A DNA stretch of 62,335 nucleotides. Source: Candidatus Thorarchaeota archaeon (GTDB taxonomy: Archaea; Asgardarchaeota; Thorarchaeia; Thorarchaeales; Thorarchaeaceae). The translations under genes and the position numbers were made by a program. The first letter of the stretch is position 1. Every line of letters begins with the position of its first letter. The notes under the pieces are model-generated. The model made no database searches. It saw only the letters and a program-made list of their open reading frames with translations, and had not been told where the DNA came from. This document shows, one piece after another, positions 21,425-33,320 of the stretch. The DNA lies in the NCBI GenBank assembly GCA_011364905.1, contig RDNZ01000013.1:1-62335 (forward strand), read 5' to 3'.

Positions 21425-21493
21425 CGAAACCACAGGCCAGTGACTAAGCCAAGTATAGCGAAAGTACACTCAGAACCTCTCTGATGTATTGAA
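21425..21493 (+). repeat. Decayed copy B of the tRNA-Lys leader, 5' exon and intron 1 (tRNA pseudogene fragment)
   Basis: Ungapped manual alignment to 22557-22625, 62/69 identical. Confidence 0.95.
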
Positions 21494-21570
21494 CTCACAG
21501 TTCCAACAAGTGAAAAGATAGATAGGGCAAGAGTGGGAGGTATTGTAGGTATTATTGGAGGTACTTTTCA

Positions 21571-22461
21571 ATGTCAGATATTCCGTATAGCGGAGAAAAA
21601 ATGGCCAAAGTAGGCGAGGTTGAACTTGCCTACGATACATTTGGAGATCCATCATCAAGACCAATGCTACTCATCATGGGATTAGGTGCACAGATGATTA
21701 AATGGAAGGATGAATTCTGCCAGGTGATAGCATCAAAGGGTCACTATGTAATCCGTTTTGATAATCGCGATGTGGGTTTGTCAACAAAATTTGATGATGC
21801 GGGTGTTCCGGATGTTGGTTCACTAATGCAAGGAAAGCCTGTGGAAACACCATACAAACTGAAAGACATGGCTGCTGATGCAGTTGGTCTGCTGGACGTG
21901 TTAGGTATCAAATCGGCTGATGTAGTAGGCGTTTCAATGGGAGGCATGATTGCTCAGACAATGGCAATTGAGTATCCTGAGAGAGTACGGACCCTTACTT
22001 CAATTATGTCTTCAACAGGTAATCCAGAGCTACCACAACCTAAGCCTGAGGTAGGGGCACTTCTTGTTGCGCCGCCAGCAGCCAACAAGACAGACTACAT
22101 CACTAATCAGGTAGCAGCGGCTAAGATCCTACATGGAACTACATTTCAGATAGATGAGGATTACGTCCGTGATGAAGCAGACCGTGCTTATGAGAGAAAC
22201 TACAACCCCCAGGGATTCACACGGCAATTTGCAGCGATACTTGCATCTGGAAGTCGTAATGCGGACTTGCAAAAAGTAAAGATACCAACCCTCGTTCTTC
22301 ACGGTAGTGTGGACCCACTGGTTCCAATTGCTGGGGGAAAAGACACTGCTAATAGCATTCCTGGTGCAAAATTCCAAGCAATCGAGGGAATGGGACACAG
22401 CTTTCCAACTGAGAGAGTTCCAGAGATACTTCAAGCTATTCTACAACACACCTCACAGTAG
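21571..22461 (+). CDS. Alpha/beta hydrolase (esterase)
   Basis: RFDNRDVGLS, GVSMGG nucleophile, HGSVDPLVP, GMGH. Confidence 0.93.
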   Translation: MSDIPYSGEKMAKVGEVELAYDTFGDPSSRPMLLIMGLGAQMIKWKDEFCQVIASKGHYVIRFDNRDVGLSTKFDDAGVPDVGSLMQGKPVETPYKLKDMAADAVGLLDVLGIKSADVVGVSMGGMIAQTMAIEYPERVRTLTSIMSSTGNPELPQPKPEVGALLVAPPAANKTDYITNQVAAAKILHGTTFQIDEDYVRDEADRAYERNYNPQGFTRQFAAILASGSRNADLQKVKIPTLVLHGSVDPLVPIAGGKDTANSIPGAKFQAIEGMGHSFPTERVPEILQAILQHTSQ

Positions 22462-22565: not shown

Positions 22566-22701
22566 GGGCCAGTGGCTAAGCCAGGTATAGCGACAGTACA
22601 TTCAGAATCTCTCTGATGTGTTGAAGCTCTTAACTTGTTGGTCGAGGGTTCGTAGAATCTGAATACCGGATTCTAGCCCAAAAATCCCTCCTGGCCCGCC
22701 A
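22566..22701 (+). tRNA. tRNA-Lys(CUU) with two non-canonical introns (22597-22625 at 30/31; 22652-22681 at 56/57) and encoded CCA
   Basis: Acceptor GGGCCAG/CTGGCCC + G73 + CCA; D stem GCTA/TAGC; after splicing, anticodon arm ACAGG-CTCTTAA-CTTGT and T arm GAGGG-TTCAAAT-CCCTC; both introns have a 4-bp central helix and bulge/cut positions matching BHB rules. Confidence 0.93.
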
Positions 22702-22760
22702 ATTCTTCTACTAATTGCTAAGTGATTTTGGAGAAGGCGACTTCTAACTTCGTTACTAGT

Positions 22761-23459
22761 CTACCCTAACTCAGGTCCACGAAATGCTCTTCCGCATCTG
22801 GAGCAGAATCCTGCATTGGAATCGACTCGCGGTGCTCCACAATACGGACAGTATCCTCCCTGTTGCGTTTGCCTAGGAATTGGAGTGGCATGACCTTGAG
22901 TCTGTCCATATACAGACTGCTGACCAGAAAATGCATTTTGTTTCTTCTGATACTCACGCGATATCACTCCTACAACAAGAACGATGAAGACAAGAAAGGC
23001 AGCTCCTTCAATAATGCCATCCGTCGAAAGATCATTTGGTACGTAGGGTGCGCTGACTGTCACTGTTCCCTCAATATGCCTGCTAAATAACCAATCATTA
23101 TTGATGAAAAGCATGTGCCATTCGCCAGAGCTGGGAACGGTAAACGATTCCGAGATACTTCCAATACTCTCTTTGATGACCTCCGCATATGCATCCTGAT
23201 TATTATGCCATAGATCATAGTTCTCCTCATCAAGGATATAGAAATCAATGTCAGTACCATAAGTCACATCAAAGTCAATATGGATGGTATAGCCCTCTTC
23301 GATGTTATTCCAATAGTAGTTATGCGACCCAAGAGGATCGACCCAAATATCTATTGTAGCATTAGGATGGATATCTCGAGGTCTTGGGGTGGCAGCATCT
23401 ACCCCAATTGGAAGTAAGATACCCAGAATCACCAAGAAGATGAAACCACGACGATTCAA
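22761..23459 (-). CDS. Type I membrane protein: signal peptide, GOLD/emp24-like beta domain, TM, cytoplasmic zinc ribbon (cassette 1)
   Basis: DFDVTYGTDIDFYILD...FTVPSSGEWHMLFIN; CPYCG...CSRCG. Confidence 0.7.
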   Translation of the reverse strand: MNRRGFIFLVILGILLPIGVDAATPRPRDIHPNATIDIWVDPLGSHNYYWNNIEEGYTIHIDFDVTYGTDIDFYILDEENYDLWHNNQDAYAEVIKESIGSISESFTVPSSGEWHMLFINNDWLFSRHIEGTVTVSAPYVPNDLSTDGIIEGAAFLVFIVLVVGVISREYQKKQNAFSGQQSVYGQTQGHATPIPRQTQQGGYCPYCGAPRVDSNAGFCSRCGRAFRGPELG

Positions 23460-23586
23460 CTACTTGTTCCCACCATTCTATCGGATGAATGTTAAGCATA
23501 TTTAATTTCTTCCAACAGATTCTGGAAGCTTCAGCCTACAGAAGTGCATCATTTCTCAATGATACAAGTCATACCTCTGCACCGAA

Positions 23587-23607
23587 CAAATCCCTTCTGG
23601 CCCGCCA
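23587..23607 (+). repeat. tRNA-Lys 3'-end direct repeat R1
   Basis: caaatcccttctggcccgcca, 20/21 to the spliced tRNA 3' end. Confidence 0.95.
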
Positions 23608-23647
23608 TCTCTATATTTGTGGATTCTTTCAGTAAGAGTATCTAGTT

Positions 23648-23962
23648 TTATTGCTTGATTGGAATACAGCAGGAGATTCCTGAGATTAGACCACCAATGG
23701 CAGCGACCAGAGTCAAGATGACAACATCCCCGATAGTCAATGGAATCAAAGAAGTCAATACTATATACCCATACCAAGTCAATCCAGTAGCTATTATCAT
23801 CAGACCTAGCAGGATCCCACCTGCCCGGCTCATTCTTACTCTCTTGGAATAATCGGTCTTTTCCATTAGACCGAGGACTAACAATACAATGGCAATCACA
23901 AACCCAAAACCTAGAAACCCTACTATACTGAAGCTAAACATCTGTTGCACTTGTGTTTGCAA
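23648..23962 (-). CDS. Hypothetical 3-TM membrane protein (cassette 2)
   Basis: 104 aa hydrophobic ORF; TATAAA-like box upstream. Confidence 0.65.
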   Translation of the reverse strand: MQTQVQQMFSFSIVGFLGFGFVIAIVLLVLGLMEKTDYSKRVRMSRAGGILLGLMIIATGLTWYGYIVLTSLIPLTIGDVVILTLVAAIGGLISGISCCIPIKQ

Positions 23963-24029
23963 TACGAACGCCCCAGTATCGCTCTATCTTTTCCAGAGTT
24001 ATAGTTATCGGATTTTGAAAGAAGGCCTA

Positions 24030-24045
24030 CCCGTCTGACCCGCCA
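24030..24045 (+). repeat. tRNA-Lys 3'-end direct repeat R2 (degenerate)
   Basis: cccgtctgacccgcca, 13/16 to ccctcctggcccgcca; sits in the expected intergenic position. Confidence 0.65.
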
Positions 24046-24074
24046 TACATCCTTTTCCATGGCGTCTTTACAAC

Positions 24075-24749
24075 TCACTGAATAAATATGCTACCTGCTA
24101 TCATTATCAGAAACGGGAGATTCACGAGATACATAACAAAATCATAGAGTGTTTCAAAAGCTGGCTCCTTACAAACCAGCTTGGCATAGTCTTGCGTTTC
24201 TTCCTTATTAGAAAAAAGAGAGATCAATTCAAGTCGATAACTTACAGCATTCATTCTATTCTGTTCTCTTTCAAATCTATGTCGTCGTCTCCATACCGAC
24301 ACTGGTAATACCATCACGGAAAAAAAGAAGCAGCTCAAGGTTATAGTATACAAGGTACCAAATGGAGAGAGTAGAAAGACAAAGTACAGAGCTGCAATAA
24401 GAATGATTAATGGATAGAGGAACGGAATGAAGAAATCAAGAATGATAATCTCACGAAATGACTCCAATTCTTTTTCCCTCTCAATGTGGTTCACAGTTTT
24501 TGCAAAGTATAATTTCACACCTGAAAGGAGGTCTGTATCTCTTAACCTAATTTTTAGTAATCCATTATCATCAATGCTTGAAGAACACGTGCGTCGCCGA
24601 GAAGAATCAGTTTCTTCGAATTTGATCTCAACTCTCTCTAGAACAACATTGCTATATTCTTCTGTATAAAGCCCAGGACTCTTTTCAAGTATCAACTTCT
24701 CTGCCCGTCTTATTTCGTCCGCACTATGATTCAGGCTCATTGTTTTCAA
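24075..24749 (-). CDS. Hypothetical membrane protein (cassette 3)
   Basis: 224 aa; soluble N-terminus and three TM segments. Confidence 0.65.
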   Translation of the reverse strand: MKTMSLNHSADEIRRAEKLILEKSPGLYTEEYSNVVLERVEIKFEETDSSRRRTCSSSIDDNGLLKIRLRDTDLLSGVKLYFAKTVNHIEREKELESFREIIILDFFIPFLYPLIILIAALYFVFLLSPFGTLYTITLSCFFFSVMVLPVSVWRRRHRFEREQNRMNAVSYRLELISLFSNKEETQDYAKLVCKEPAFETLYDFVMYLVNLPFLIMIAGSIFIQ

Positions 24750-24817
24750 TCCGTCATTGCAACCTCATTATCTTATCATACAACAAGAATCGAGATAATT
24801 ATTATTGAACGATCTTT

Positions 24818-24845
24818 GAGAATTCAAATCCCCCCTGGCCTGCCA
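24818..24845 (+). repeat. tRNA-Lys 3'-end direct repeat R3 (intron-less form)
   Basis: gagaattcaaatcccccctggcctgcca, 24/28 to spliced gagggttcaaatccctcctggcccgcca. Confidence 0.92.
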
Positions 24846-24854
24846 TCAGTTTTC

Positions 24855-25109
24855 CTACCCTCTTGAATCCATCTGAAATGCCTCCTCAGCATGCCAACCA
24901 ATGAATACTAACAGACTACCAATACCACTCCCAATCGCGCCTCCTTGAACTGCCACACCAATGTACAAATTGGTATCTATATACTGGGGAGAGTATGCAA
25001 TCAGATATGCTGCTGATAAAACAACACTGAAAACTGAGAAGAGCAGAATTGCCATTCCTAAGGCAAATATAATAGCTCTTACTATGAAGGGGATATTTCT
25101 ACCACTCAA
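24855..25109 (-). CDS. Small 2-TM hypothetical protein (cassette 4)
   Basis: 84 aa; GGAGGGTGG SD-like element and AT-rich TATA-like box upstream. Confidence 0.65.
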   Translation of the reverse strand: MSGRNIPFIVRAIIFALGMAILLFSVFSVVLSAAYLIAYSPQYIDTNLYIGVAVQGGAIGSGIGSLLVFIGWHAEEAFQMDSRG

Positions 25110-25164
25110 TCTACCACCCTCCAGACTGAGAAAAGATGTTCTATTAAATACATACTACTGAATA

Positions 25165-25188
25165 GTTCAAATCCCCTCTGGTCCGCCG
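25165..25188 (+). repeat. tRNA-Lys 3'-end direct repeat R4 (intron-less form)
   Basis: gttcaaatcccctctggtccgccg, 20/24. Confidence 0.9.
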
Positions 25189-25191
25189 ACT

Positions 25192-26367
25192 CTATTTCCT
25201 TCGAATCACAATGAATACAACGATTACAATCACAGCTATGGTTCCGATAATCAACAAAATGAGCATCACCGGAGTTTCAGGTGGTAGAAAGGTATCCGTA
25301 GTTGTTTCTGTGGAAGTCGTTGTTCCAGTTGTAGTGGGTGGAGTAGTCATTGTGGTCGACTCCCCCAGAACGGTGATGATAACAGTATCGACCAAACTGT
25401 ATCCAGACACATCGTTCACAACAAGAGTCAGATTATACATTCCAACTGTCAAACCATCTATTGCCTTTGACAGATGATCCAAGGATGTATTTAATGGGCC
25501 CTGAGTGAAAATTGCATCATTCCAAAACATCGCATAAGAATGAGGATTTGGTAATCTCACATCCCATGCGACTGAGGGGACAGATGAACCAAAAACATAC
25601 TCAACATCAGTTGGCTTACTGAGAAATCCTCGAGGATAGTTGTCTTCACCAACTCCCGAAATTGAATAGGCACCTACTCCGGAATAGTCCGACCAGATAT
25701 TCCCTGTACTGCTTCCGTCATCCCAGTCATTGAACATTCCTTGGTCGTTAGCATTTCCTGCAGAGTTGAAACCTATCATGTTGTCGTAAATCTCAGAATA
25801 CAGAGTATATGAATAAACATTCAAACCAAGATTGGCATTTCCATAGACCTTGTTACCCACTATGATAACACCTGATGTGTATATCATGTATATCCCGTCA
25901 GCTGAGCATCCATAGATCTTGTTTTCCATGATCTCCAGATAGTTAACAACATAGAGCCGTATAGAATACTGCTTATCATGAATAGTGTTGTTGTAAATCA
26001 ATCCATTGTTTACATTTGAAACATAGATGCCTCTGCCTGAATCTTGGGATTGTGAGTACAATAAACAATTACTGATGATAAAATGAACATCGGTATTTGC
26101 TATGCTGACACAAGTGCCGTCAGTCACGATTTCAAGTGAGTCAATGACATAAGGCGATTGCTCTGTGCCATTACCCGGCCAACCCTGTGCTGCAAAATCC
26201 GCGTTGCTTGATATTGTAATTGCGGCATGAGGAGTGAGCGATGATAATCTAAACGAGGTGTTCTGAAACTCATTCGAATCCATGGGCAAGGAAATGAAAC
26301 TAATGCTAGCGCAGGACATGACCAGTATAATACTCAATACTAATGGAAAAGATGTCTTCTTCACCAA
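25192..26367 (-). CDS. Cell-surface right-handed beta-helix (NosD/CASH) protein with Thr-rich linker and TM anchor (cassette 5)
   Basis: GWPGNGTEQSPYVI, repeated NxIxxN/GIY units, GNIWSDY; TTTATATA box upstream. Confidence 0.85.
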   Translation of the reverse strand: MVKKTSFPLVLSIILVMSCASISFISLPMDSNEFQNTSFRLSSLTPHAAITISSNADFAAQGWPGNGTEQSPYVIDSLEIVTDGTCVSIANTDVHFIISNCLLYSQSQDSGRGIYVSNVNNGLIYNNTIHDKQYSIRLYVVNYLEIMENKIYGCSADGIYMIYTSGVIIVGNKVYGNANLGLNVYSYTLYSEIYDNMIGFNSAGNANDQGMFNDWDDGSSTGNIWSDYSGVGAYSISGVGEDNYPRGFLSKPTDVEYVFGSSVPSVAWDVRLPNPHSYAMFWNDAIFTQGPLNTSLDHLSKAIDGLTVGMYNLTLVVNDVSGYSLVDTVIITVLGESTTMTTPPTTTGTTTSTETTTDTFLPPETPVMLILLIIGTIAVIVIVVFIVIRRK

Positions 26368-26446
26368 TCTCCCCAGACCAGATGGGCAAATCCACTATAT
26401 AAAGAAGAGCAGTGTTCCATTTACTTTTTTATAACGGGACTTCAAT

Positions 26447-26465
26447 AATCCCTCCTGGCCCGCCA
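26447..26465 (+). repeat. tRNA-Lys 3'-end direct repeat R5
   Basis: aatccctcctggcccgcca, perfect 19/19 to 22683-22701; the pyrimidine-rich flank is also similar. Confidence 0.97.
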
Positions 26466-26472
26466 ACTCTTT

Positions 26473-26964
26473 CTAAGTTCTTCTTTCTATAGTCCTTGTT
26501 CTTAAGACCTGATGCGCTCCAACCAGTAATAGTAATGGAGTTGGCACAAACAATCTTAGATTGACATCCGGTGCTAAAATTGATATGAGGACTCCTGGCA
26601 GTGTTCCATAAATCACGTTGCCAGACATCAATACCAAACAAATGATAATCTCAATTCCGATGAGGATTAATCCAAAGGTCCGAACAAGATTCAGACCAAC
26701 TCTATCTAGGTTGAATCCAATCAGCGTGATCACAAACAATACCCTTGGTATCAACACTATAATGTTCGGTAATAAGATGATTAGCCAATCATTGAGATAC
26801 CAGTCAGAGTATAGAATTGCCCACGTTGATCCCATAACTCCAAAGAAGAGATGACTTGAATCACGCCACTCCAGATATTGAAATCCTATTACCGCAGGAG
26901 TGAATAATGCTAATACTAGGAGTAGAATGAGATTCCGAACCGTATTTGCAGAATTGAATCTCAA
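26473..26964 (-). CDS. Hypothetical 4-TM membrane protein (cassette 6)
   Basis: 163 aa hydrophobic ORF. Confidence 0.65.
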   Translation of the reverse strand: MRFNSANTVRNLILLLVLALFTPAVIGFQYLEWRDSSHLFFGVMGSTWAILYSDWYLNDWLIILLPNIIVLIPRVLFVITLIGFNLDRVGLNLVRTFGLILIGIEIIICLVLMSGNVIYGTLPGVLISILAPDVNLRLFVPTPLLLLVGAHQVLRTRTIERRT

Positions 26965-27064
26965 ATTGCCTTGCTCCTATCACACAACCTACCGTTATTG
27001 CGCTCTTTTGATAGAAATGTCTATCCATTACCAAAGAAATGTACGAGGACCTCTGCTCTGTCCT

Positions 27065-27083
27065 AATCCCTCCTGGTCCGCCA
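27065..27083 (+). repeat. tRNA-Lys 3'-end direct repeat R6
   Basis: aatccctcctggtccgcca, 18/19. Confidence 0.95.
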
Positions 27084-27091
27084 TCTTGATT

Positions 27092-27838
27092 TTACTGATT
27101 TCTGAAAATGTATATTCCCCAGCTGATGGTATCTCTACCCCATTTTAGGTAGATATCTTTTGCAGTCTTTGTTTTCTCGAGAAGCTCCTGATTATCGGGA
27201 TCATCAGTATGCGACTGAATATAATTTTCAACAGCCCACCACTGAAGAGTTTCATAGTGGTCCCAATCATCTTTGTTAGACACAAGTGTATAGAGGCATG
27301 TGAGTCCCATTTCTTCACCTTGATACACATTATCTTCATGCGGTCGAAAAGAATTACGAGTCATTTTGGTCACCTCAAGATATTCAGTATCAGGCTCTTT
27401 CAACCAAAAAGGTTCACCAACAATCGCAAGACCTCCAGGTTTTATCATCTGCTTGAGTGCTCTCAATGTTCCAGCATGATCTTCAAAGACCCAGCTTGCT
27501 CCTAAACACATTGCAACATCAAATAGTCCTCCTGATTCAGGTCGATACTTAGCACCATCCAACTCAATGAAGGTTAAATCGGATTCAGGAACTCTCTCGA
27601 GATGTTTCTTCTTACAATCATTGATACAAAATGGAGATAGATCAACTCCCACGCCTGAAATTCCATATTTCTCTGCTAGTCTGACTAAGACCTCCCCCTT
27701 TCCACATGCGATATCAAGAATTCGAGTATCTTTTGGCAGGTTGAGAAGTTGACAGAATCGTTCGAATTTCTCTTCACTCATTGGATTACAGAGTACATGA
27801 TGCTTGTGTGTAATGTCATAATACTTCCATTTGTCCAT
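27092..27838 (-). CDS. Class I SAM-dependent methyltransferase, YjhP-like (cassette 7)
   Basis: ILDIACGKGE, GVDLS, CLGASW, KPGG..IVGEPFW. Confidence 0.88.
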   Translation of the reverse strand: MDKWKYYDITHKHHVLCNPMSEEKFERFCQLLNLPKDTRILDIACGKGEVLVRLAEKYGISGVGVDLSPFCINDCKKKHLERVPESDLTFIELDGAKYRPESGGLFDVAMCLGASWVFEDHAGTLRALKQMIKPGGLAIVGEPFWLKEPDTEYLEVTKMTRNSFRPHEDNVYQGEEMGLTCLYTLVSNKDDWDHYETLQWWAVENYIQSHTDDPDNQELLEKTKTAKDIYLKWGRDTISWGIYIFRNQ

Positions 27839-27889
27839 CTACATCATCTCCATACCTGTTGACTCGAAGATACTCTTGGAAATAAATAT

Positions 27890-27918
27890 TCGAGGGTTCA
27901 AATCACCCTAGCCGGCTA
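27890..27918 (+). repeat. tRNA-Lys 3'-end direct repeat R7 (intron-less form)
   Basis: tcgagggttcaaatc is a perfect 15-nt match across the intron-2 splice junction, followed by degenerate accctagccggcta. Confidence 0.88.
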
Positions 27919-28066
27919 CTCTTTCCCGATTCTATCAAACATCTCGATAGGATGAACGTCATACTTTGCTGCAATAATCTTGTAACTTATATAAATCAGG
28001 TTTATACGAAGACGTATGGCCCAAGATCATCTTGAACGCATTGAGAGATTAGTGGGAGCTGAATAG

Positions 28067-29800
28067 GTGATGGCTGTTGCTTTCATGGCTTCGCTTGAAC
28101 AATCACCTGAAACTTACGAACAGGAGTTTGATGATGTACTTGAGGGAAGAAGTAGACGTATCCGGGAACGTATTCTCGAGCTTGTCAAACCCGGAATGAA
28201 AGTGCTTGACCTTGGATGTGGTCCTGGGCAGTTTGCAATTGAGGCGTCAAAAAAAGGAGCCTCGGTTATCGGTGTCGACTCTAACATGGGCATGATAACA
28301 TTTGCTAAGACGAGCGCTTCAACACTTGAAAAAGCCCCCGACTTTGTTTGTTCTGATGTATTGGCAATTCATGATGAATTGCAGGTTGAGGACATAGAAG
28401 CATCTCCCAGCTTAATTCCTGACCATAAGTTTGACCTCATTGTTAGTACTTTTCTCTTATCGGAGCTTAAACCTGTTCAACGTGATTTGCTCTTGCGGAA
28501 TATGAGAAAAATGCTTTCAGATGAAGGCGCTTTCGTAATTGCTGCAGAAACACTTCCTGAGTCATCGTCTGATAGGAAAACATTCTGGAAGAACAGAGGG
28601 CTGGTTGAGAAGGAAGCTCGAGTTCGACTTGCACCACCTATTGTTTCCCTTGAAGATCTGATTCAGAAGGCTGGTTTTGTCATTAAGGAATCCGAAAGAT
28701 ATGGTCCTGAAATAGTGTATCTTACTGGAACTAAGAGTCTCATTGAACCTCCGAATGAATATCAGAGCAGAGTTAGACCAATCTTTGGAGGCGTCGCGAG
28801 AACAAGAATTTGGTACTGTCATATCACTGGTGGCTGGCGCGGAATATCAATAACACCCGGTCTTTATCGAGCAGGGACTCCAAACTCAGAAAGCCCTGTC
28901 TTGGTGACAGCTAACTATGAACTCACATATTATACAGTGATGAGAGCATTAGCAAAGGATAGTATCGATGCATGGGTGCTTGTCTGTGATACTGATGGCA
29001 TCAATGTCTGGTGCGCTGCACGAGGAACCCACTTCAATAGCGATGATGTTGTTAATATGGTGCGTTTAACTGGTCTAACTGATATAGTGAATCATAGAGA
29101 ATTGATCCTACCACAGTTATCAGCTGCTGGAATGGACCCATCAGAAATTCGTAGACGAACGGGGTTTAGAGTTCGATATGGTCCTGTCAGAGTCTATGAT
29201 CTCTCTGAGTGGTTTGAACTCGGAAAACCAAGGCCTAAGCCAAGAGGAATGGCAACCGTCACATTCAATCTGAGGGAGCGGATGGAGCAGACTGTTGCCC
29301 ACGTGCCATTTCTGTTTGCGGTTCTACTTGGCAAGCCTCTTGTTGCTATTCTTGGAATGATTGCACTCATCAATTTACTAGCCTCGATGTTCCCAATCGC
29401 GCTTGCAGCGACTTATCCAACATCTCTTCAGATTCTCTCACTTATTGGCGAGTTTGTTTTTGCTCTCGCTGCCAATTCTCTCGTACTTGGCTTATTGTTC
29501 CCTATTCTGCCTTCGAAAGGAAACTCATTCTGGCGTCGGGGCCTTGGTCTTTCAGCTATTACACTGCCTATTGCAGCGATAATCATGATACTTATGGGAG
29601 TGCACTGGACTGATATGACCTCGTGGATGATAATCCAATTCGTTCTTGTGATATCTTTGACCATGGACTGGTCGGGGATGACATCAGTGAGCGATCCAAA
29701 GGTAATAAGAAGGGAGTATCCATACCTAATACTGACATTAAAAACAGGAGCCATGTTTCTGGTGGTTTTCAACCTAATCGTTATAATCATGGGCTGGTGA
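28067..29800 (+). CDS. hgcA: Fusion of a class I SAM-methyltransferase domain with an HgcA-type corrinoid-binding domain and TM region
   Basis: KVLDLGCGPG (motif I); PGLYRAGTPNSESPVLVTANYELT, DTDGINVWCAARG cap helix, LILPQL, YGPVR; C-terminal TM helices. Confidence 0.8.
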   Translation: MMAVAFMASLEQSPETYEQEFDDVLEGRSRRIRERILELVKPGMKVLDLGCGPGQFAIEASKKGASVIGVDSNMGMITFAKTSASTLEKAPDFVCSDVLAIHDELQVEDIEASPSLIPDHKFDLIVSTFLLSELKPVQRDLLLRNMRKMLSDEGAFVIAAETLPESSSDRKTFWKNRGLVEKEARVRLAPPIVSLEDLIQKAGFVIKESERYGPEIVYLTGTKSLIEPPNEYQSRVRPIFGGVARTRIWYCHITGGWRGISITPGLYRAGTPNSESPVLVTANYELTYYTVMRALAKDSIDAWVLVCDTDGINVWCAARGTHFNSDDVVNMVRLTGLTDIVNHRELILPQLSAAGMDPSEIRRRTGFRVRYGPVRVYDLSEWFELGKPRPKPRGMATVTFNLRERMEQTVAHVPFLFAVLLGKPLVAILGMIALINLLASMFPIALAATYPTSLQILSLIGEFVFALAANSLVLGLLFPILPSKGNSFWRRGLGLSAITLPIAAIIMILMGVHWTDMTSWMIIQFVLVISLTMDWSGMTSVSDPKVIRREYPYLILTLKTGAMFLVVFNLIVIIMGW

Positions 29801-29806
29801 CAAATA

Positions 29807-30133
29807 ATGACCGTTGTAACGCAGCAAGTCGATCTTGAGATAGAGTATGACCCACATCGGTGCAACCGTTGTGGAATGTGCCTTGAGGTCTGTCCATTTA
29901 ACGTCTGGGAGCTGCCAGTTGACGGTCCCGCAGTCATTGCAAGACCTGAAGACTGTACTAATTGTACTGCATGTGCCAAGAACTGCTTAGGCAATGCCAT
30001 AAATGTAAGAAACATAGGTTGCGGATGTATCTGGAACGAGTCCGCACGACGGAGTGGAAAGGTCGAGGAGTCAGTAATCGGCAAAAATCAAGATAGTTGC
30101 TCACCAACAGAAGGTAAATCCTGTTGTGAATGA
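29807..30133 (+). CDS. hgcB: HgcB-like 2[4Fe-4S] ferredoxin with Cys-rich tail
   Basis: CNRCGMCLEVCP, CTNCTACAKNC, GCGC and terminal CC; 6 bp after the hgcA-like gene. Confidence 0.7.
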   Translation: MTVVTQQVDLEIEYDPHRCNRCGMCLEVCPFNVWELPVDGPAVIARPEDCTNCTACAKNCLGNAINVRNIGCGCIWNESARRSGKVEESVIGKNQDSCSPTEGKSCCE

Positions 30134-30400
30134 CTACCTTCTCAATCCAATTCGCTACCACAATTATCGACCATATTCGTAGTTTAGTATATTTTACTGG
30201 ACACCACGAAATGATGAATCGTGCACTGATTCATCTAATTGAAGTTTTCATGGAAGATATGTAGAATGCAAACGATCTCTTTTCTCAAGTCTTTTGATGG
30301 CATTAAGCTAGAGTTCTCAGCTGAACTTGCAGCAAGAGAACTTGGAGTTAATATCGAACTCTATCACCACACTTGGGATGATTATCTCTCTTGCTAATGC

Positions 30401-30420
30401 CAAATTCCCCTAGCCCGTCA
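30401..30420 (+). repeat. tRNA-Lys 3'-end direct repeat R8 (degenerate)
   Basis: caaattcccctagcccgtca followed by tctctttcc, as after R5 and R7. Confidence 0.7.
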
Positions 30421-30486
30421 TCTCTTTCCACTCAATTCTTCTATTAATATAAACACCTATAGGCTACTTAGAGTCGCGAAAAGCCT

Positions 30487-30960
30487 ATGAGTCTCTCAAT
30501 CAAGAAGGGGATTAGTTTTGGAACCACATCCGGAGTTATTACAACGCTAGGAATGATTGTGGGAGTAAATGCAAGTACAAGCTCTCGTCTTGCTGTAATT
30601 GCAGCGATAGTGGCAATCGCGATAGCCGACGCTTTCTCCGACGCTGTTGCAATGCATGTATCAGAGGAATCTGAGGGTGTTCATTCACGAAACGACGTCT
30701 TGGAGGCTACTCTGACTACATTCTTTACAAAATTCATTTTTGCCTTGAGTTTCGTGGTCCCAATCTGGTTCTTGGCCCTTGATATTGCAGTCGTAGTGGA
30801 CATTATTTGGGGCTTATTGATTATGACTGTTTTCAACATCCTCCTAGCTCGTTCACAGAAAGAAGGAGTATTACGAGTTGTTTTCGAACATCTTACAATT
30901 GCAGTCGCTGTTGTTCTAATAACCTACATCGTTGGTTCGTTCCTATCAACAGTCGTCTAA
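30487..30960 (+). CDS. VIT1/CCC1-family metal transporter
   Basis: FGTTSGVITTLG, AIADAFSDAVAMHVSEESE; five TM. Confidence 0.85.
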   Translation: MSLSIKKGISFGTTSGVITTLGMIVGVNASTSSRLAVIAAIVAIAIADAFSDAVAMHVSEESEGVHSRNDVLEATLTTFFTKFIFALSFVVPIWFLALDIAVVVDIIWGLLIMTVFNILLARSQKEGVLRVVFEHLTIAVAVVLITYIVGSFLSTVV

Positions 30961-30984
30961 GAAGCAAGACCATAATTGACACCT

Positions 30985-31012
30985 TCGGGATTCAAATCCT
31001 TCTTGGCCGCCA
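30985..31012 (+). repeat. tRNA-Lys 3'-end direct repeat R9 (intron-less form)
   Basis: tcgggattcaaatccttcttggccgcca versus spliced tcgagggttcaaatccctcctggcccgcca. Confidence 0.85.
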
Positions 31013-31057
31013 TCTCACTGAACCTTGCTTCAATCTTGTCACTAATATATCACAAGC

Positions 31058-31939
31058 GTGAGGACCATCCGGTTAATCGACATGGAAGGGATACTCAGAA
31101 CAGGCACAGGAGAAATCCGCTTCTTATGGAAACTTGCTGTGACCTTCATACTGCTTATTGTGTTGATTGTCATTAGCAGGCTCAGTTTGATACTTATGGT
31201 CCAACAAGTTCTCATCTTCCAAGGGACACTACCTTCTGCTGCTTTTGAGAACGCGCAAATCTTTGTAGCCGAATCATCAGAGGGTCAAGCGATTGCGAGT
31301 TCGCTGGATTTAGCGTTGATACTCCTACTCGTTTTCCTCCTAGTTACTCGCATCGAAAAACATGAGTTTCACTTGGCTGACATTGGTCTTAATCTGCAGC
31401 GCGATACTCTGCCCCTCGTTGTGTTTGGAATCGTTATTGGATGTGGTCTTTTTCTCGGAGCAGTGATGTTTGGAGTGCTTCTCCACACGATTGGACTTCC
31501 TGTGTATCCCCATCTTGAACAGTGGCCACTTTTAATCACACTAATAGCATCAGTAATCTTCTACGGTCTGAATAGCTTCTGGCAAGAGATTGTGTTTCGA
31601 GGGTATTTGCAGACCCAGGCGGTTGAAGAATATGGCGGGCTACTCGGAATTTCTACTGTTACAGTAGCCTTTGTTCTCTTTCACGGACTAGTTCAGACTC
31701 TAACACCAATAGGAATCATCTCAGGTCTGTTGCTATTCGGCTACATAGGACTCCTATACGAAAAGACCAGATCGCTCTACCTTGTGGGTGTGATTCATGC
31801 AGTTCTCAACTTCTTACCAGTTCTTTTCAACCTATCATGGCAAGGGTTAGAGAGTGTCATAACATATGGCATTGCGCTTGTACTACTGATTCTGTTGATA
31901 CGCAGAACCGAGCAATCAGCATCAACCGATTCGCAGTAG
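31058..31939 (+). CDS. CPBP/Abi (CAAX protease-like) membrane protein
   Basis: QEIVFRGY (EExxxR variant), FVLFH, HAVLN. Confidence 0.85.
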   Translation: MRTIRLIDMEGILRTGTGEIRFLWKLAVTFILLIVLIVISRLSLILMVQQVLIFQGTLPSAAFENAQIFVAESSEGQAIASSLDLALILLLVFLLVTRIEKHEFHLADIGLNLQRDTLPLVVFGIVIGCGLFLGAVMFGVLLHTIGLPVYPHLEQWPLLITLIASVIFYGLNSFWQEIVFRGYLQTQAVEEYGGLLGISTVTVAFVLFHGLVQTLTPIGIISGLLLFGYIGLLYEKTRSLYLVGVIHAVLNFLPVLFNLSWQGLESVITYGIALVLLILLIRRTEQSASTDSQ

Positions 31940-32262: not shown

Positions 32263-33237
32263 CTATTTCGCTATTTTGCCAAGTTTCGAAATCACTTCTT
32301 CGGCTTCACTCATTATTCTATCAAGCAATTCCTTCACAGTGGGAATATCCTTTATCAGACCTACACCTTGACCGCAACTCACGACTCCAAGGTCAATGTC
32401 CCCTTCCCTATACATCTTCTCTGATTTTTCCCCAGAGGCTGCCTGAATAAGGGTGTACAAGGGCACTTTTTGAGCCTCTAGTTCGAGTACTATCTGTGCA
32501 GCCTTATTATTCCAGAACCTGTGGGTATTTCCAACCGACCGCAGAGCCAAGACTGTATCAACTTCCCTTGCCTGTACAAAAGCTTGCTTCAGGTTGTCAT
32601 GAATGGGACACTCCTTTGTAGCCATCATCCTTGTGCCCATGATCACCCCTTCCGCACCCAGGGCAAAGGCTGCAGCAACACCTCTACCATCTGTTATTCC
32701 TCCCCCTGCAATCACAGGGACATTTAGAGCATCAACTACAGAAGGAGTCATCACCATTGTTCCTATGTCCAGAATCCCAGTGGCTCCGCCGTTCTCATAC
32801 CCAACCACTGTTATGATATCGGCTCCCAGCGATGCTCCTTTGAGCGCGTATCTCACGCCTGCACACTTGTGAATCCAGACTGCGCCTCCGTCCTTGAATT
32901 TTGGAACCAGGTCCTCCGGAGCCTTGTGACCACTTGTTTCAATGATCTTCACGTCCTCAGCCAATGTGGCATCGACATAGTCTTCCAGCTTTTCCTGGGG
33001 CATCAACGCGGGGAAGAGATTGATATTTACGGCAAATGGCTGGTCTGTGAGAGACTGTGTCTTCTTGATGGCATCACGCAACGCATCAGGAGTCTTGTAG
33101 TTCGCACTGGCTAAAACAGCACAGGCACCAGCATTACTTGCTGCCGCAACGAACTCAGGATTAGAGATCCTTGCCATGGTCCCTGCTATAATCGGGTATT
33201 TGCATCCCAACATTTCAGTTACTCTTGTCTTTATCAT
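32263..33237 (-). CDS. Nitronate monooxygenase/FabK-family flavoenzyme
   Basis: YPIIAGTM, PFAVNI, GYENGG, PVIAGGGITDGRG, GTRM, GQGVGLI. Confidence 0.92.
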   Translation of the reverse strand: MIKTRVTEMLGCKYPIIAGTMARISNPEFVAAASNAGACAVLASANYKTPDALRDAIKKTQSLTDQPFAVNINLFPALMPQEKLEDYVDATLAEDVKIIETSGHKAPEDLVPKFKDGGAVWIHKCAGVRYALKGASLGADIITVVGYENGGATGILDIGTMVMTPSVVDALNVPVIAGGGITDGRGVAAAFALGAEGVIMGTRMMATKECPIHDNLKQAFVQAREVDTVLALRSVGNTHRFWNNKAAQIVLELEAQKVPLYTLIQAASGEKSEKMYREGDIDLGVVSCGQGVGLIKDIPTVKELLDRIMSEAEEVISKLGKIAK

Positions 33238-33320
33238 TGGCTTACACCCACATCCTTTGACCATTGATTTGATTCTCACAGATAAGTCTCATTATCAGAT
33301 TCGGTAATCACTACAGAACG

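Follow-up and report, generated by a model that had tools for sequence, protein, structure and literature searches.

A tRNA-Lys gene of Thorarchaeota as a candidate collecting site for single-gene cassettes bounded by copies of the tRNA 3' end

Tandem accretion of DNA at tRNA and tmRNA genes is known from the tycheposon islands of Prochlorococcus (10.1101/2020.12.28.424599), the ssrA islands of Dehalococcoides (PMC3146451) and the cis-mobilizable elements (CIMEs) of streptococci (reviewed in PMC5704250). The array described here, on a tRNA-Lys gene of a Candidatus Thorarchaeota archaeon, resembles these systems in that its units are bounded by direct repeats of the 3' end of an RNA gene that is rebuilt at each insertion, that new units appear to enter beside the tRNA with older ones pushed outward, and that some units of the known systems also have no integrase of their own; with CIMEs in particular it shares att-type sites on both sides and units free of recombination or transfer genes. 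However, the Thorarchaeota units are single genes (median 0.8 kb) and not multi-kb elements, an integrase occurs in 0 of about 90 intervals with no helper integrase found, the sites are still recognisable at junctions conserved between genera, and each genome has many anchors, including the 16S trailer. Integrons, archaeal ones included, offer a second comparison (PMC9668308), since they too consist of cassettes that mostly hold one ORF and are delimited by recombination sites, in shuffled order and common to several species, with small accessory enzymes (GNAT, DinB, methyltransferases) and defence genes as cargo. Unlike integrons, whose cassettes are promoterless, co-oriented and served by a common Pc, the Thorarchaeota array has no IntI, attI or attC hairpin, its site is a copy of a host-gene end, its anchor is a functional tRNA, and its cassettes have their own predicted promoter regions and lie in both orientations. 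Archaeal viruses and plasmids with SSV-type or pNOB8-type tyrosine integrases likewise target tRNA genes, with crossovers in the anticodon loop and at the 3' end, but no integrase halves or genes lie at the Thorarchaeota boundaries, and the cargo is one gene (PMC7253208). No paper on this single-gene cassette architecture was found in the literature.

The window analyzed is the whole 62,335-nt stretch of contig RDNZ01000013.1. Its array is anchored on a tRNA-Lys(CTT) gene with introns of 29 nt in the anticodon stem and 29-30 nt in the T loop; because of these two introns the gene was missed by both ARAGORN and Rfam in the raw window, and splicing in silico restored the ARAGORN call. The features, with their strand, are as follows.

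21436-21496 (+): decayed copy of the tRNA-Lys 5' part (exon 1 and intron 1), by blastn against the G008 and G018 tRNA and alignment
21571-22461 (+): alpha/beta-hydrolase gene (Pfam Abhydrolase_1), with tRNA 5' repeats on both flanks
22566-22701 (+): tRNA-Lys(CTT) gene with two introns (anticodon stem, T loop), the array anchor
22761-23459 (-): cassette 1, 232-aa membrane protein with a C-terminal zinc ribbon
23585-23610 (+): repeat 1, 37.9 bits
23648-23962 (-): cassette 2, 104-aa protein
24030-24045 (+): repeat 2, weak, score 21.5, at the 95% level of the null
24075-24749 (-): cassette 3, 224-aa protein
24823-24848 (+): repeat 3, 33.0 bits
24855-25109 (-): cassette 4, 84-aa protein
25166-25191 (+): repeat 4, 27.1 bits
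25192-26367 (-): cassette 5, NosD/beta-helix protein (Pfam)
26443-26468 (+): repeat 5, 31.6 bits
26473-26964 (-): cassette 6, 163-aa protein
27061-27086 (+): repeat 6, 30.9 bits
27092-27838 (-): cassette 7, SAM methyltransferase (Pfam)
27886-27918 (+): repeat 7, by gapped alignment; intron-less T arm kept, acceptor part decayed
28067-30133 (+): two-gene cassette, methyltransferase::HgcA-like membrane protein and HgcB-like ferredoxin (Pfam)
30398-30423 (+): repeat 8, weak, local alignment score 23.5
30487-30960 (+): VIT1 cassette (Pfam VIT1 at 27.8 bits, slightly below the 28.1-bit cut-off)
30987-31015 (+): repeat 9, by gapped local alignment
31058-31939 (+): CPBP (Rce1-like) cassette (Pfam)
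32263-33279 (-): NMO gene

The nine same-strand (+) repeats that follow the tRNA gene are colinear copies of the last 20-30 nt of its 3' end and grade into five strong, two clear when gaps are allowed, and two weaker ones. The strong repeats score 27-38 bits against the profile, and four of the five lie within 3 mismatches of the 20-mer (0 in 100 shuffles); the gapped repeats at 27886-27918 and 30987-31015 reach a local alignment score of 28, above the maximum of 26.5 in 300 shuffled controls; and the weak ones at 30398-30423 and 24030-24045 each sit precisely within an intergenic gap, that at 24030 matching a T-stem variant found in congeners. Distal repeats are more decayed than tRNA-proximal ones, and past 31015 neither profile nor local alignment recognises any. 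Many repeats have no 5' T-stem strand, so that no hairpin could form there. The Lys motif has no further occurrence across the 3.08-Mb genome and is therefore not a generic terminator.

A first-pass annotation of this DNA had claimed the nine repeats, which profile, shuffle controls and local alignment now confirm, and also one minus-strand gene in each of the first seven intervals, with stop codons 3-59 nt from the preceding tRNA end or repeat. That arrangement is indeed found: each interval has a single minus-strand ORF, the stop codons lying 59, 40, 28, 9, 3, 7 and 8 nt from the preceding tRNA or repeat and the start codons 51-125 nt from the next repeat. The TATA-like box claimed before 26367, TTTATATA, is present there, some cassettes have TATA-like boxes, and the later cargo (hgcAB-like pair, VIT1, CPBP) is as described, with Pfam support; the HgcA-like protein is a methyltransferase fusion with a cap-helix-like motif and transmembrane segments. 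Each cassette is a minimal unit of a short T-rich trailer, one gene, a predicted promoter region of ~50-125 nt and an arm that is often T-arm-like, and the array has a GC content of 42.3% compared with 46-47% in its flanks. From the integron-like reading of that annotation the discrete, repeat-bounded one-gene modules in variable order stand; its suggestion that cassettes share the tRNA terminator is not supported, as every cassette has a T-rich trailer of its own right behind the CCA and roughly a third lie in the other orientation (60 opposite to the repeat direction and 33 with it). The checks run against the refuting conditions set by that annotation all favour its reading: gene order varies, the repeat is confined to this locus, more than 60 independent assemblies share the layout, and integrase remnants are absent.

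Upstream of the tRNA-Lys gene, the similarity of 21436-21496 to tRNA-Lys stops in the anticodon loop, and 3' of the hydrolase gene come a fresh promoter and then the tRNA-Lys 5' part. Contig C75 of G018 shows the same junction with 96% identity. The hydrolase gene, newly recognised here in this role, is thus a cassette on the tRNA 5' side with its left boundary at 21436-21496, and is proposed to have been placed by a second type of event that crossed over in the anticodon loop; the array begins upstream of the tRNA, a point overlooked by the earlier annotation. The tRNA 3' end and the anticodon loop, which are the two crossover positions here, are reportedly the classical sublocations of integrases (Williams, in 2002).

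Relatives show the same layout with different contents. In all mapped tRNA-Lys/NMO loci of congeneric species and in 43 metagenome contigs, Lys repeats delimit one-gene units; across the window, the congeners and the metagenome contigs, 94 repeat-to-repeat intervals have a median length of 810 bp, and just one ORF lies in each of 76 of them. Cassette content and order vary, the tRNA-to-NMO gap being cassette-free in one species, and a given one-gene unit turns up with unchanged boundaries in many different surroundings. The tRNA-proximal cassettes 1, 2 and 4 are rare or unique: the nearest congeneric homologue of cassette 1 (49% identical) is located elsewhere, and none of its homologues in congeners adjoins recognisable repeats; cassette 2 has a paralogue on contig C92 (50% identity over 64 aa); and cassette 4 has 55-61% homologues within arrays of two metagenome contigs (L078, L092). 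Cassette 3 has a 73% aa homologue at a different array position in G005, cassette 5 is the tRNA-proximal cassette of G005 and G003, and cassette 6 has 34-66% homologues in the G017, G001, G188 and L089 arrays. The distal CPBP, VIT1 and NMO genes are widespread; CPBP has repeats on both flanks in G005, G003, G014 and L079, VIT1 is found on either side of NMO, and in the shortest arrays (L131, L155) NMO directly adjoins tRNA-Lys, while in some relatives repeats flank NMO itself.

The methyltransferase cassette 7 is the best-documented mobile unit, and is the most recently exchanged though distal to cassettes 1-6. Its homology between contigs begins directly after CCA and stops before the acceptor strand at the other side, and the T-stem variant there tracks the left neighbour or the resident tRNA. 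Since the homology of shared cassettes breaks inside the repeat, the crossover would fall in the 11 nt with which the tRNA gene ends, made up of the 3' strand of the acceptor, the discriminator base and CCA; mismatches elsewhere in the repeat could mimic this pattern. Cassettes are thus probably joined to the tRNA and to each other by recombination in these 11 nt, and a crossover there means that each insertion would leave a spare tRNA tail and rebuild an intact tRNA. The cassette is 79-97% identical between contigs, compared with 78-81% for the linked NMO, and the two identities are hardly correlated (r = 0.11 over 91 pairs); this comparison of sequences supports movement of at least one module between species independently of its neighbours, and cassettes in general have been exchanged between species and reordered. 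At orthologous methyltransferase/NMO junctions the repeat retains 71% identity compared with 29-33% in the next 20-30 nt, which suggests that the sites are maintained, and the adjacency of the two genes with the repeat in between is conserved into another genus.

The tRNA-Lys array is one of several in the host genome, which the earlier annotation also overlooked. At least four other anchors, including the 16S trailer, have arrays with unrelated repeat sequences, and a paralogous HgcA-like/HgcB-like pair adjoins the 16S-trailer array on contig C24. Repeat length spans 13 to about 90 nt and differs even within arrays. Reverse transcription primed by tRNA was considered because the repeats have an intron-less T arm and CCA, and was rejected: tRNA-Ser and 16S repeats contain trailer DNA missing from the mature RNA, the repeats have no sharp stop at T-loop position 58, promoter regions are included in the cassettes, and tRNA-Lys alleles free of the T-loop intron are present in the population. 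Beyond the genus, a stricter family-level pattern scan found local clusters in several other genera, and the two inspected individually (G188, G177) were both confirmed as arrays; a loose phylum-wide pattern count was uninformative because other tRNAs match it too. No viral contig has a T-loop-to-CCA Lys site, and the nine viral-contig matches to a shorter pattern fall by chance in coding DNA or in an unrelated tRNA.

The window had been described as having no integrase, and this extends to the genome and the cassettes examined. In the 81%-complete genome none of seven classical recombinase and transposase families was found (tyrosine recombinase (PF00589), serine recombinase, IS110, Y1-HUH, Cas1, rve and DDE transposase); PF00589 is absent from the whole genome, window included, and from all cassette ORFs scanned, and the 53 cassette protein families include no recombinase. 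In the genus tyrosine recombinases are sporadic (PF00589 in 8 of 28 congeners, one beside a tRNA end), and none of the PF00589-bearing contigs of those eight carries the Lys site. Because several anchors have unrelated repeats, sequence-specific integrases would need several specificities. The agent of insertion could be a trans-acting recombinase or host short-homology recombination.

The reading put forward here, tentatively and with its chance judged somewhat short of even, is that the locus is a gene-collecting site on tRNA-Lys run by a site-specific recombinase supplied in trans. New cassettes would enter beside the tRNA, pushing older ones outward; excision between two repeats would give a circle with one hybrid site, able to insert again at the tRNA of any relative. 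The gene for the recombinase might lie elsewhere or on an unbinned element, or the enzyme might be of an unrecognised family; it would need only a simple, core-only site, as for Xer, Cre and IntI. The same architecture and mobility might instead arise with no dedicated enzyme, by the host's homologous or short-homology recombination once cells have exchanged DNA, the gene-end copies of 13-90 nt acting as portable homology for loop-out of circles and single-crossover re-insertion at the anchor. This account is possible but rather doubtful. It agrees with the failure to find any of the seven families in the genome, the many unrelated anchors (16S trailer included), the variation in repeat length even within arrays, and the 5'-side duplications of roughly 100 nt, which cover the tRNA 5' part, the intron and apparently a decayed promoter too; likewise, both contig ends of G018 that match the window do so at ~96% identity, which would fit the exchange of a block of several kb that ends at repeat 7. 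However, it leaves unexplained more than 50 unrelated, tightly trimmed genes with a gene-end copy at the edge; the junctions examined fall in one narrow region (subject to the same mimicry by repeat mismatches); homology of 11-26 nt is a poor substrate; and arrays should be eroded if their repeats often recombine homologously with one another.

That the repeats are scars of serial multi-kb elements with integrases (viruses, plasmids, islands), since decayed to single genes, is improbable. Tandem accretion with partial tRNAs is well known, as in the tycheposon islands (10.1101/2020.12.28.424599), and one 4.2-kb interval in G014 holds AbiTii and HEPN-like defence genes, but most intervals (76 of 94) have one ORF and almost no spare DNA, no integrase fragment was found in any interval scanned, and independent decay would not give recurring one-gene units with identical boundaries; on these comparisons it is largely refuted. 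Least credible of all is a static, vertically inherited array in which the repeats, as regulatory or terminator elements, were copied together with the genes, or else an assembly artefact. The methyltransferase/NMO adjacency, repeat included, is conserved into another genus, as such an array would predict; against this stand the permuted order, the decoupled divergence of cassette and neighbour, the absence of the motif elsewhere in the genome, recurrence of the layout in more than 60 independent assemblies, and repeats probably shorter than typical assembly k-mers, by which both versions are refuted.

In a wider setting, the arrays may together represent a lineage-wide gene-capture system of Thorarchaeota, an independently arisen archaeal analogue of the integron that uses conserved host-gene ends (tRNAs, the 16S trailer and protein-gene ends) as attachment sites for single-gene cassettes and works with an undescribed recombinase family or none; this too is held with a little less than even confidence. 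The 11-nt crossover region and the methyltransferase cassette, nearly identical across species, provide an experimental handle, either for an enzyme search or for a test of recombinase-free capture. Both tRNA-Lys introns lie at edges of duplicated segments, which bears on the odd intron positions in archaeal tRNA genes. If the proposal is true, the integron principle of collecting single-gene cassettes at a fixed site would reach to a different site chemistry and domain of life, and in these relatives of eukaryotes, whose genomes otherwise seem to contain hardly any transposases or integrases, the system would be a main route by which accessory genes are gained, lost and swapped one at a time.

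The tRNA-Lys gene that anchors the array is called by neither ARAGORN nor Rfam at 22566-22701 in the raw window; it carries two introns, of 29 nt in the anticodon stem and 29-30 nt in the T loop, and when these are removed in silico the remaining 78 nt are folded by ARAGORN as tRNA-Lys(CTT).

21436-21496: decayed copy of the tRNA-Lys first exon and first intron (5' relic)
21571-22461: hydrolase gene, between the 5' relic and the live tRNA-Lys
22566-22701, +: tRNA-Lys(CTT), as folded by ARAGORN after in-silico intron removal
22595-22623 and 22651-22680: tRNA-Lys introns

As proposed in the first-pass annotation, the 3' end of this gene is directly repeated, its last 20 nt recurring on the same strand in nine copies. 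With up to 3 mismatches allowed, four copies are found against zero expected (100 shuffles); the remainder came from repeat finding, a profile scan and gapped alignment. Five copies are strong, two (27886 and 30987) become clear with gaps allowed, and the weaker ones at 30398 and 24030 lie exactly within intergenic gaps. The logo (49 copies) runs from the T loop through CCA, then TCT and a T-rich tail; the motif was not found elsewhere in the source genome (3.08-Mb assembly including this contig, 95 contigs, 81% complete). A repeat-like inverted match of 19.5 bits within the CPBP coding region (31630-31655, minus strand) could be a chance similarity or what is left of an inverted site.

Each of the first seven intervals indeed holds one minus-strand ORF, its stop codon 3-59 nt from the repeat before it and its start separated from the next repeat by 51-125 nt; because all seven have homologues somewhere they are real genes. 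Their products are a zinc-ribbon membrane protein, a NosD-like beta-helix protein, a SAM methyltransferase (cassette 7; 27092-27838, minus strand) and four small or unassigned proteins (cassettes 2, 3, 4 and 6). The cargo described past cassette 7 was likewise recovered: at 28067-30133 one gene joins a SAM methyltransferase to an HgcA-like corrinoid/membrane protein with a cap-helix-like NVWCAA motif and the next encodes an HgcB-like ferredoxin whose tail is Cys-rich; VIT1 and CPBP come after it. GC content is 42.3% in the array vs 46-47% in the flanks.

Identical gene content and order in relatives, which would have spoken against repeated insertion, is not what is seen: when 18 congeneric species were searched at the DNA level and 20 loci, drawn from 16 of these species, were mapped, tRNA-Lys 3'-end repeats bounded mostly single genes in the stretches covering the array, and both content and order differed, as in these congeners (NMO being the gene beyond the array, 32263-33279, minus strand in the window):

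G005: tRNA, NosD, NosD, CPBP, cassette 3, ..., NMO
G003: tRNA, NosD, CPBP, methyltransferase, NMO
G014: tRNA, 4.2-kb defence block, methyltransferase, CPBP
G017: CPBP, VIT1, NMO
G007: tRNA, NMO, with zero cassettes between

A metagenome scan with the methyltransferase as query gave 43 loci, in which the cassette occupies positions from the first, abutting the tRNA, to the seventh, its place in the window; copies of at least 78% identity are repeat-flanked in nearly all cases having flanking DNA, the exceptions being L108, L113 and one side of L075. In L108 (1061-1591) and L113 (900-1184) the gene, 93-97% identical, lacks its usual promoter arm and repeat and stands in a different context, with a GC-rich hairpin and unrelated genes upstream. 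Among species representatives, scanned with NMO as query, the distance from tRNA to NMO spans zero cassettes to many, and NMO orthologues of at most 81% identity, in records mostly labelled other Promethearchaeota, show no such repeats; tRNA-Lys arrays are present in two further genera of the family. Pooled over window, congener and metagenome loci, repeat-to-repeat intervals (n=94) have a median of 810 bp and 76 contain exactly one ORF (at least 60 aa), with 60 cassettes oriented against the tRNA direction and 33 with it. Between them the ORFs represent 53 protein families, which include enzymes (GNATs, DinB, PEMT/ICMT-like methyltransferases, peptidases, arginase-like and beta-lactamase-like proteins, an old-yellow-enzyme-type oxidoreductase, Oxidored_FMN), an HTH regulator and defence-like proteins (SMC/AAA, AbiTii, HEPN).

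The crossover point was mapped by aligning the methyltransferase cassette of the window with copies from five genomes and comparing both junctions over ~30 loci. On the stop-codon side cassette-specific sequence starts directly after CCA, and on the promoter side it stops after a T-arm-like block; those T-stem bases that vary in the left repeat track the left neighbour and, where that neighbour is the tRNA, match its 5' T-stem strand. This pattern places the exchange point in the final 11 nt of the tRNA gene, CTGGCCCGCCA. Each cassette is thus the source of a new trailer for whatever stands to its left, which explains the pyrimidine-rich tail, so that the earlier suggestion of a tRNA terminator shared by the cassettes is not needed.

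On the 5' side, tRNA similarity in the relic stops in the anticodon loop, and the live tRNA-Lys downstream of the hydrolase gene has its own promoter. Comparable relics occur in G004, in G188 (another genus) and on two metagenome contigs, and a contig of the congener G018 (C75) terminates in the same hydrolase-side junction at 96% identity. The ends of C75 and C17 of that genome (L183, L021) match window 21435-21749 and 27451-27935 at 95-96% identity, against ~80% for core genes, as would be expected if a block of hydrolase, tRNA and methyltransferase had been shared recently and the window's lineage had then acquired cassettes 1-6. The locus is a break point in many assemblies. Both introns lie at edges of duplicated segments, the end of intron 1 being where similarity to the relic stops and the end of the T-loop intron coinciding with the start of the 3' repeat core; alleles lacking the T-loop intron occur in L027, L080 and L083. 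The introns could be leftovers of insertions, or a shield for the gene against insertion. Two unrelated promoter/leader types precede the tRNA in different populations (L081, L110 and L027 vs the window), and both L081 and L110 retain, 700 nt upstream of one type, a relic of the other that includes 14 nt of the tRNA, which points to replacement events at the 5' end of the gene.

As to the enzyme, no tyrosine or serine recombinase, IS110, Y1-HUH, Cas1, rve or DDE_Tnp_1 was detected in the source genome (81% complete), where TnpB-like matches fell below cut-off, and none of the 53 cassette families is a recombinase; positive controls for seven recombinase/transposase families gave matches in well-known genomes for each. 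The main rival to a recombinase is host short-homology recombination. PF00589 matches occur in just 8 of the 28 congeners; most of the contigs that carry them are short, and none has the Lys site. With zero matches in the other 20 genomes, this lineage appears to lack a XerA-type chromosome-dimer resolvase or to have a highly divergent one. MAGs under-sample mobile elements, so a helper may yet act in trans.

The one-ORF-per-interval layout recurs in the source genome behind at least four other anchors:

C31:24000-30000: array behind tRNA-Ala(GGC)
C31:5500-9000: array behind tRNA-Val(GAC)
C74:1-4000: array behind tRNA-Ser(TGA)
C24:4000-23900: array behind a 16S trailer element

The tRNA-Ser repeat is short, made up of the final 6 nt of the tRNA and 7 nt of trailer. 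The 16S-trailer array contains a CPBP paralogue, and a paralogous HgcAB-like pair (C24:24979-26847) lies ~4 kb past its last confirmed repeat. The literature searched, on Asgard mobile elements, integron-like tRNA arrays, CIME accretion and archaeal integrons, yielded no account from Asgard archaea of single-gene arrays that sit at gene ends and are free of integrases; the nearest known relatives are tycheposons, ssrA islands, CIMEs and archaeal integrons.

Identity of the methyltransferase cassette to the window is 79-97% at the nucleotide level (13 loci) and that of NMO on the contigs they share is 78-81%, the two being uncorrelated (r = 0.11 over 91 locus pairs). At orthologous methyltransferase/NMO junctions from different species and genera (a small sample, n=4, compared without gaps) the repeat has a mean identity of 71%, and the next 20-30 nt are at 29-33%, near random. 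The comparison of these four junctions suggests that the repeat sites are maintained or refreshed and are not passive scars.
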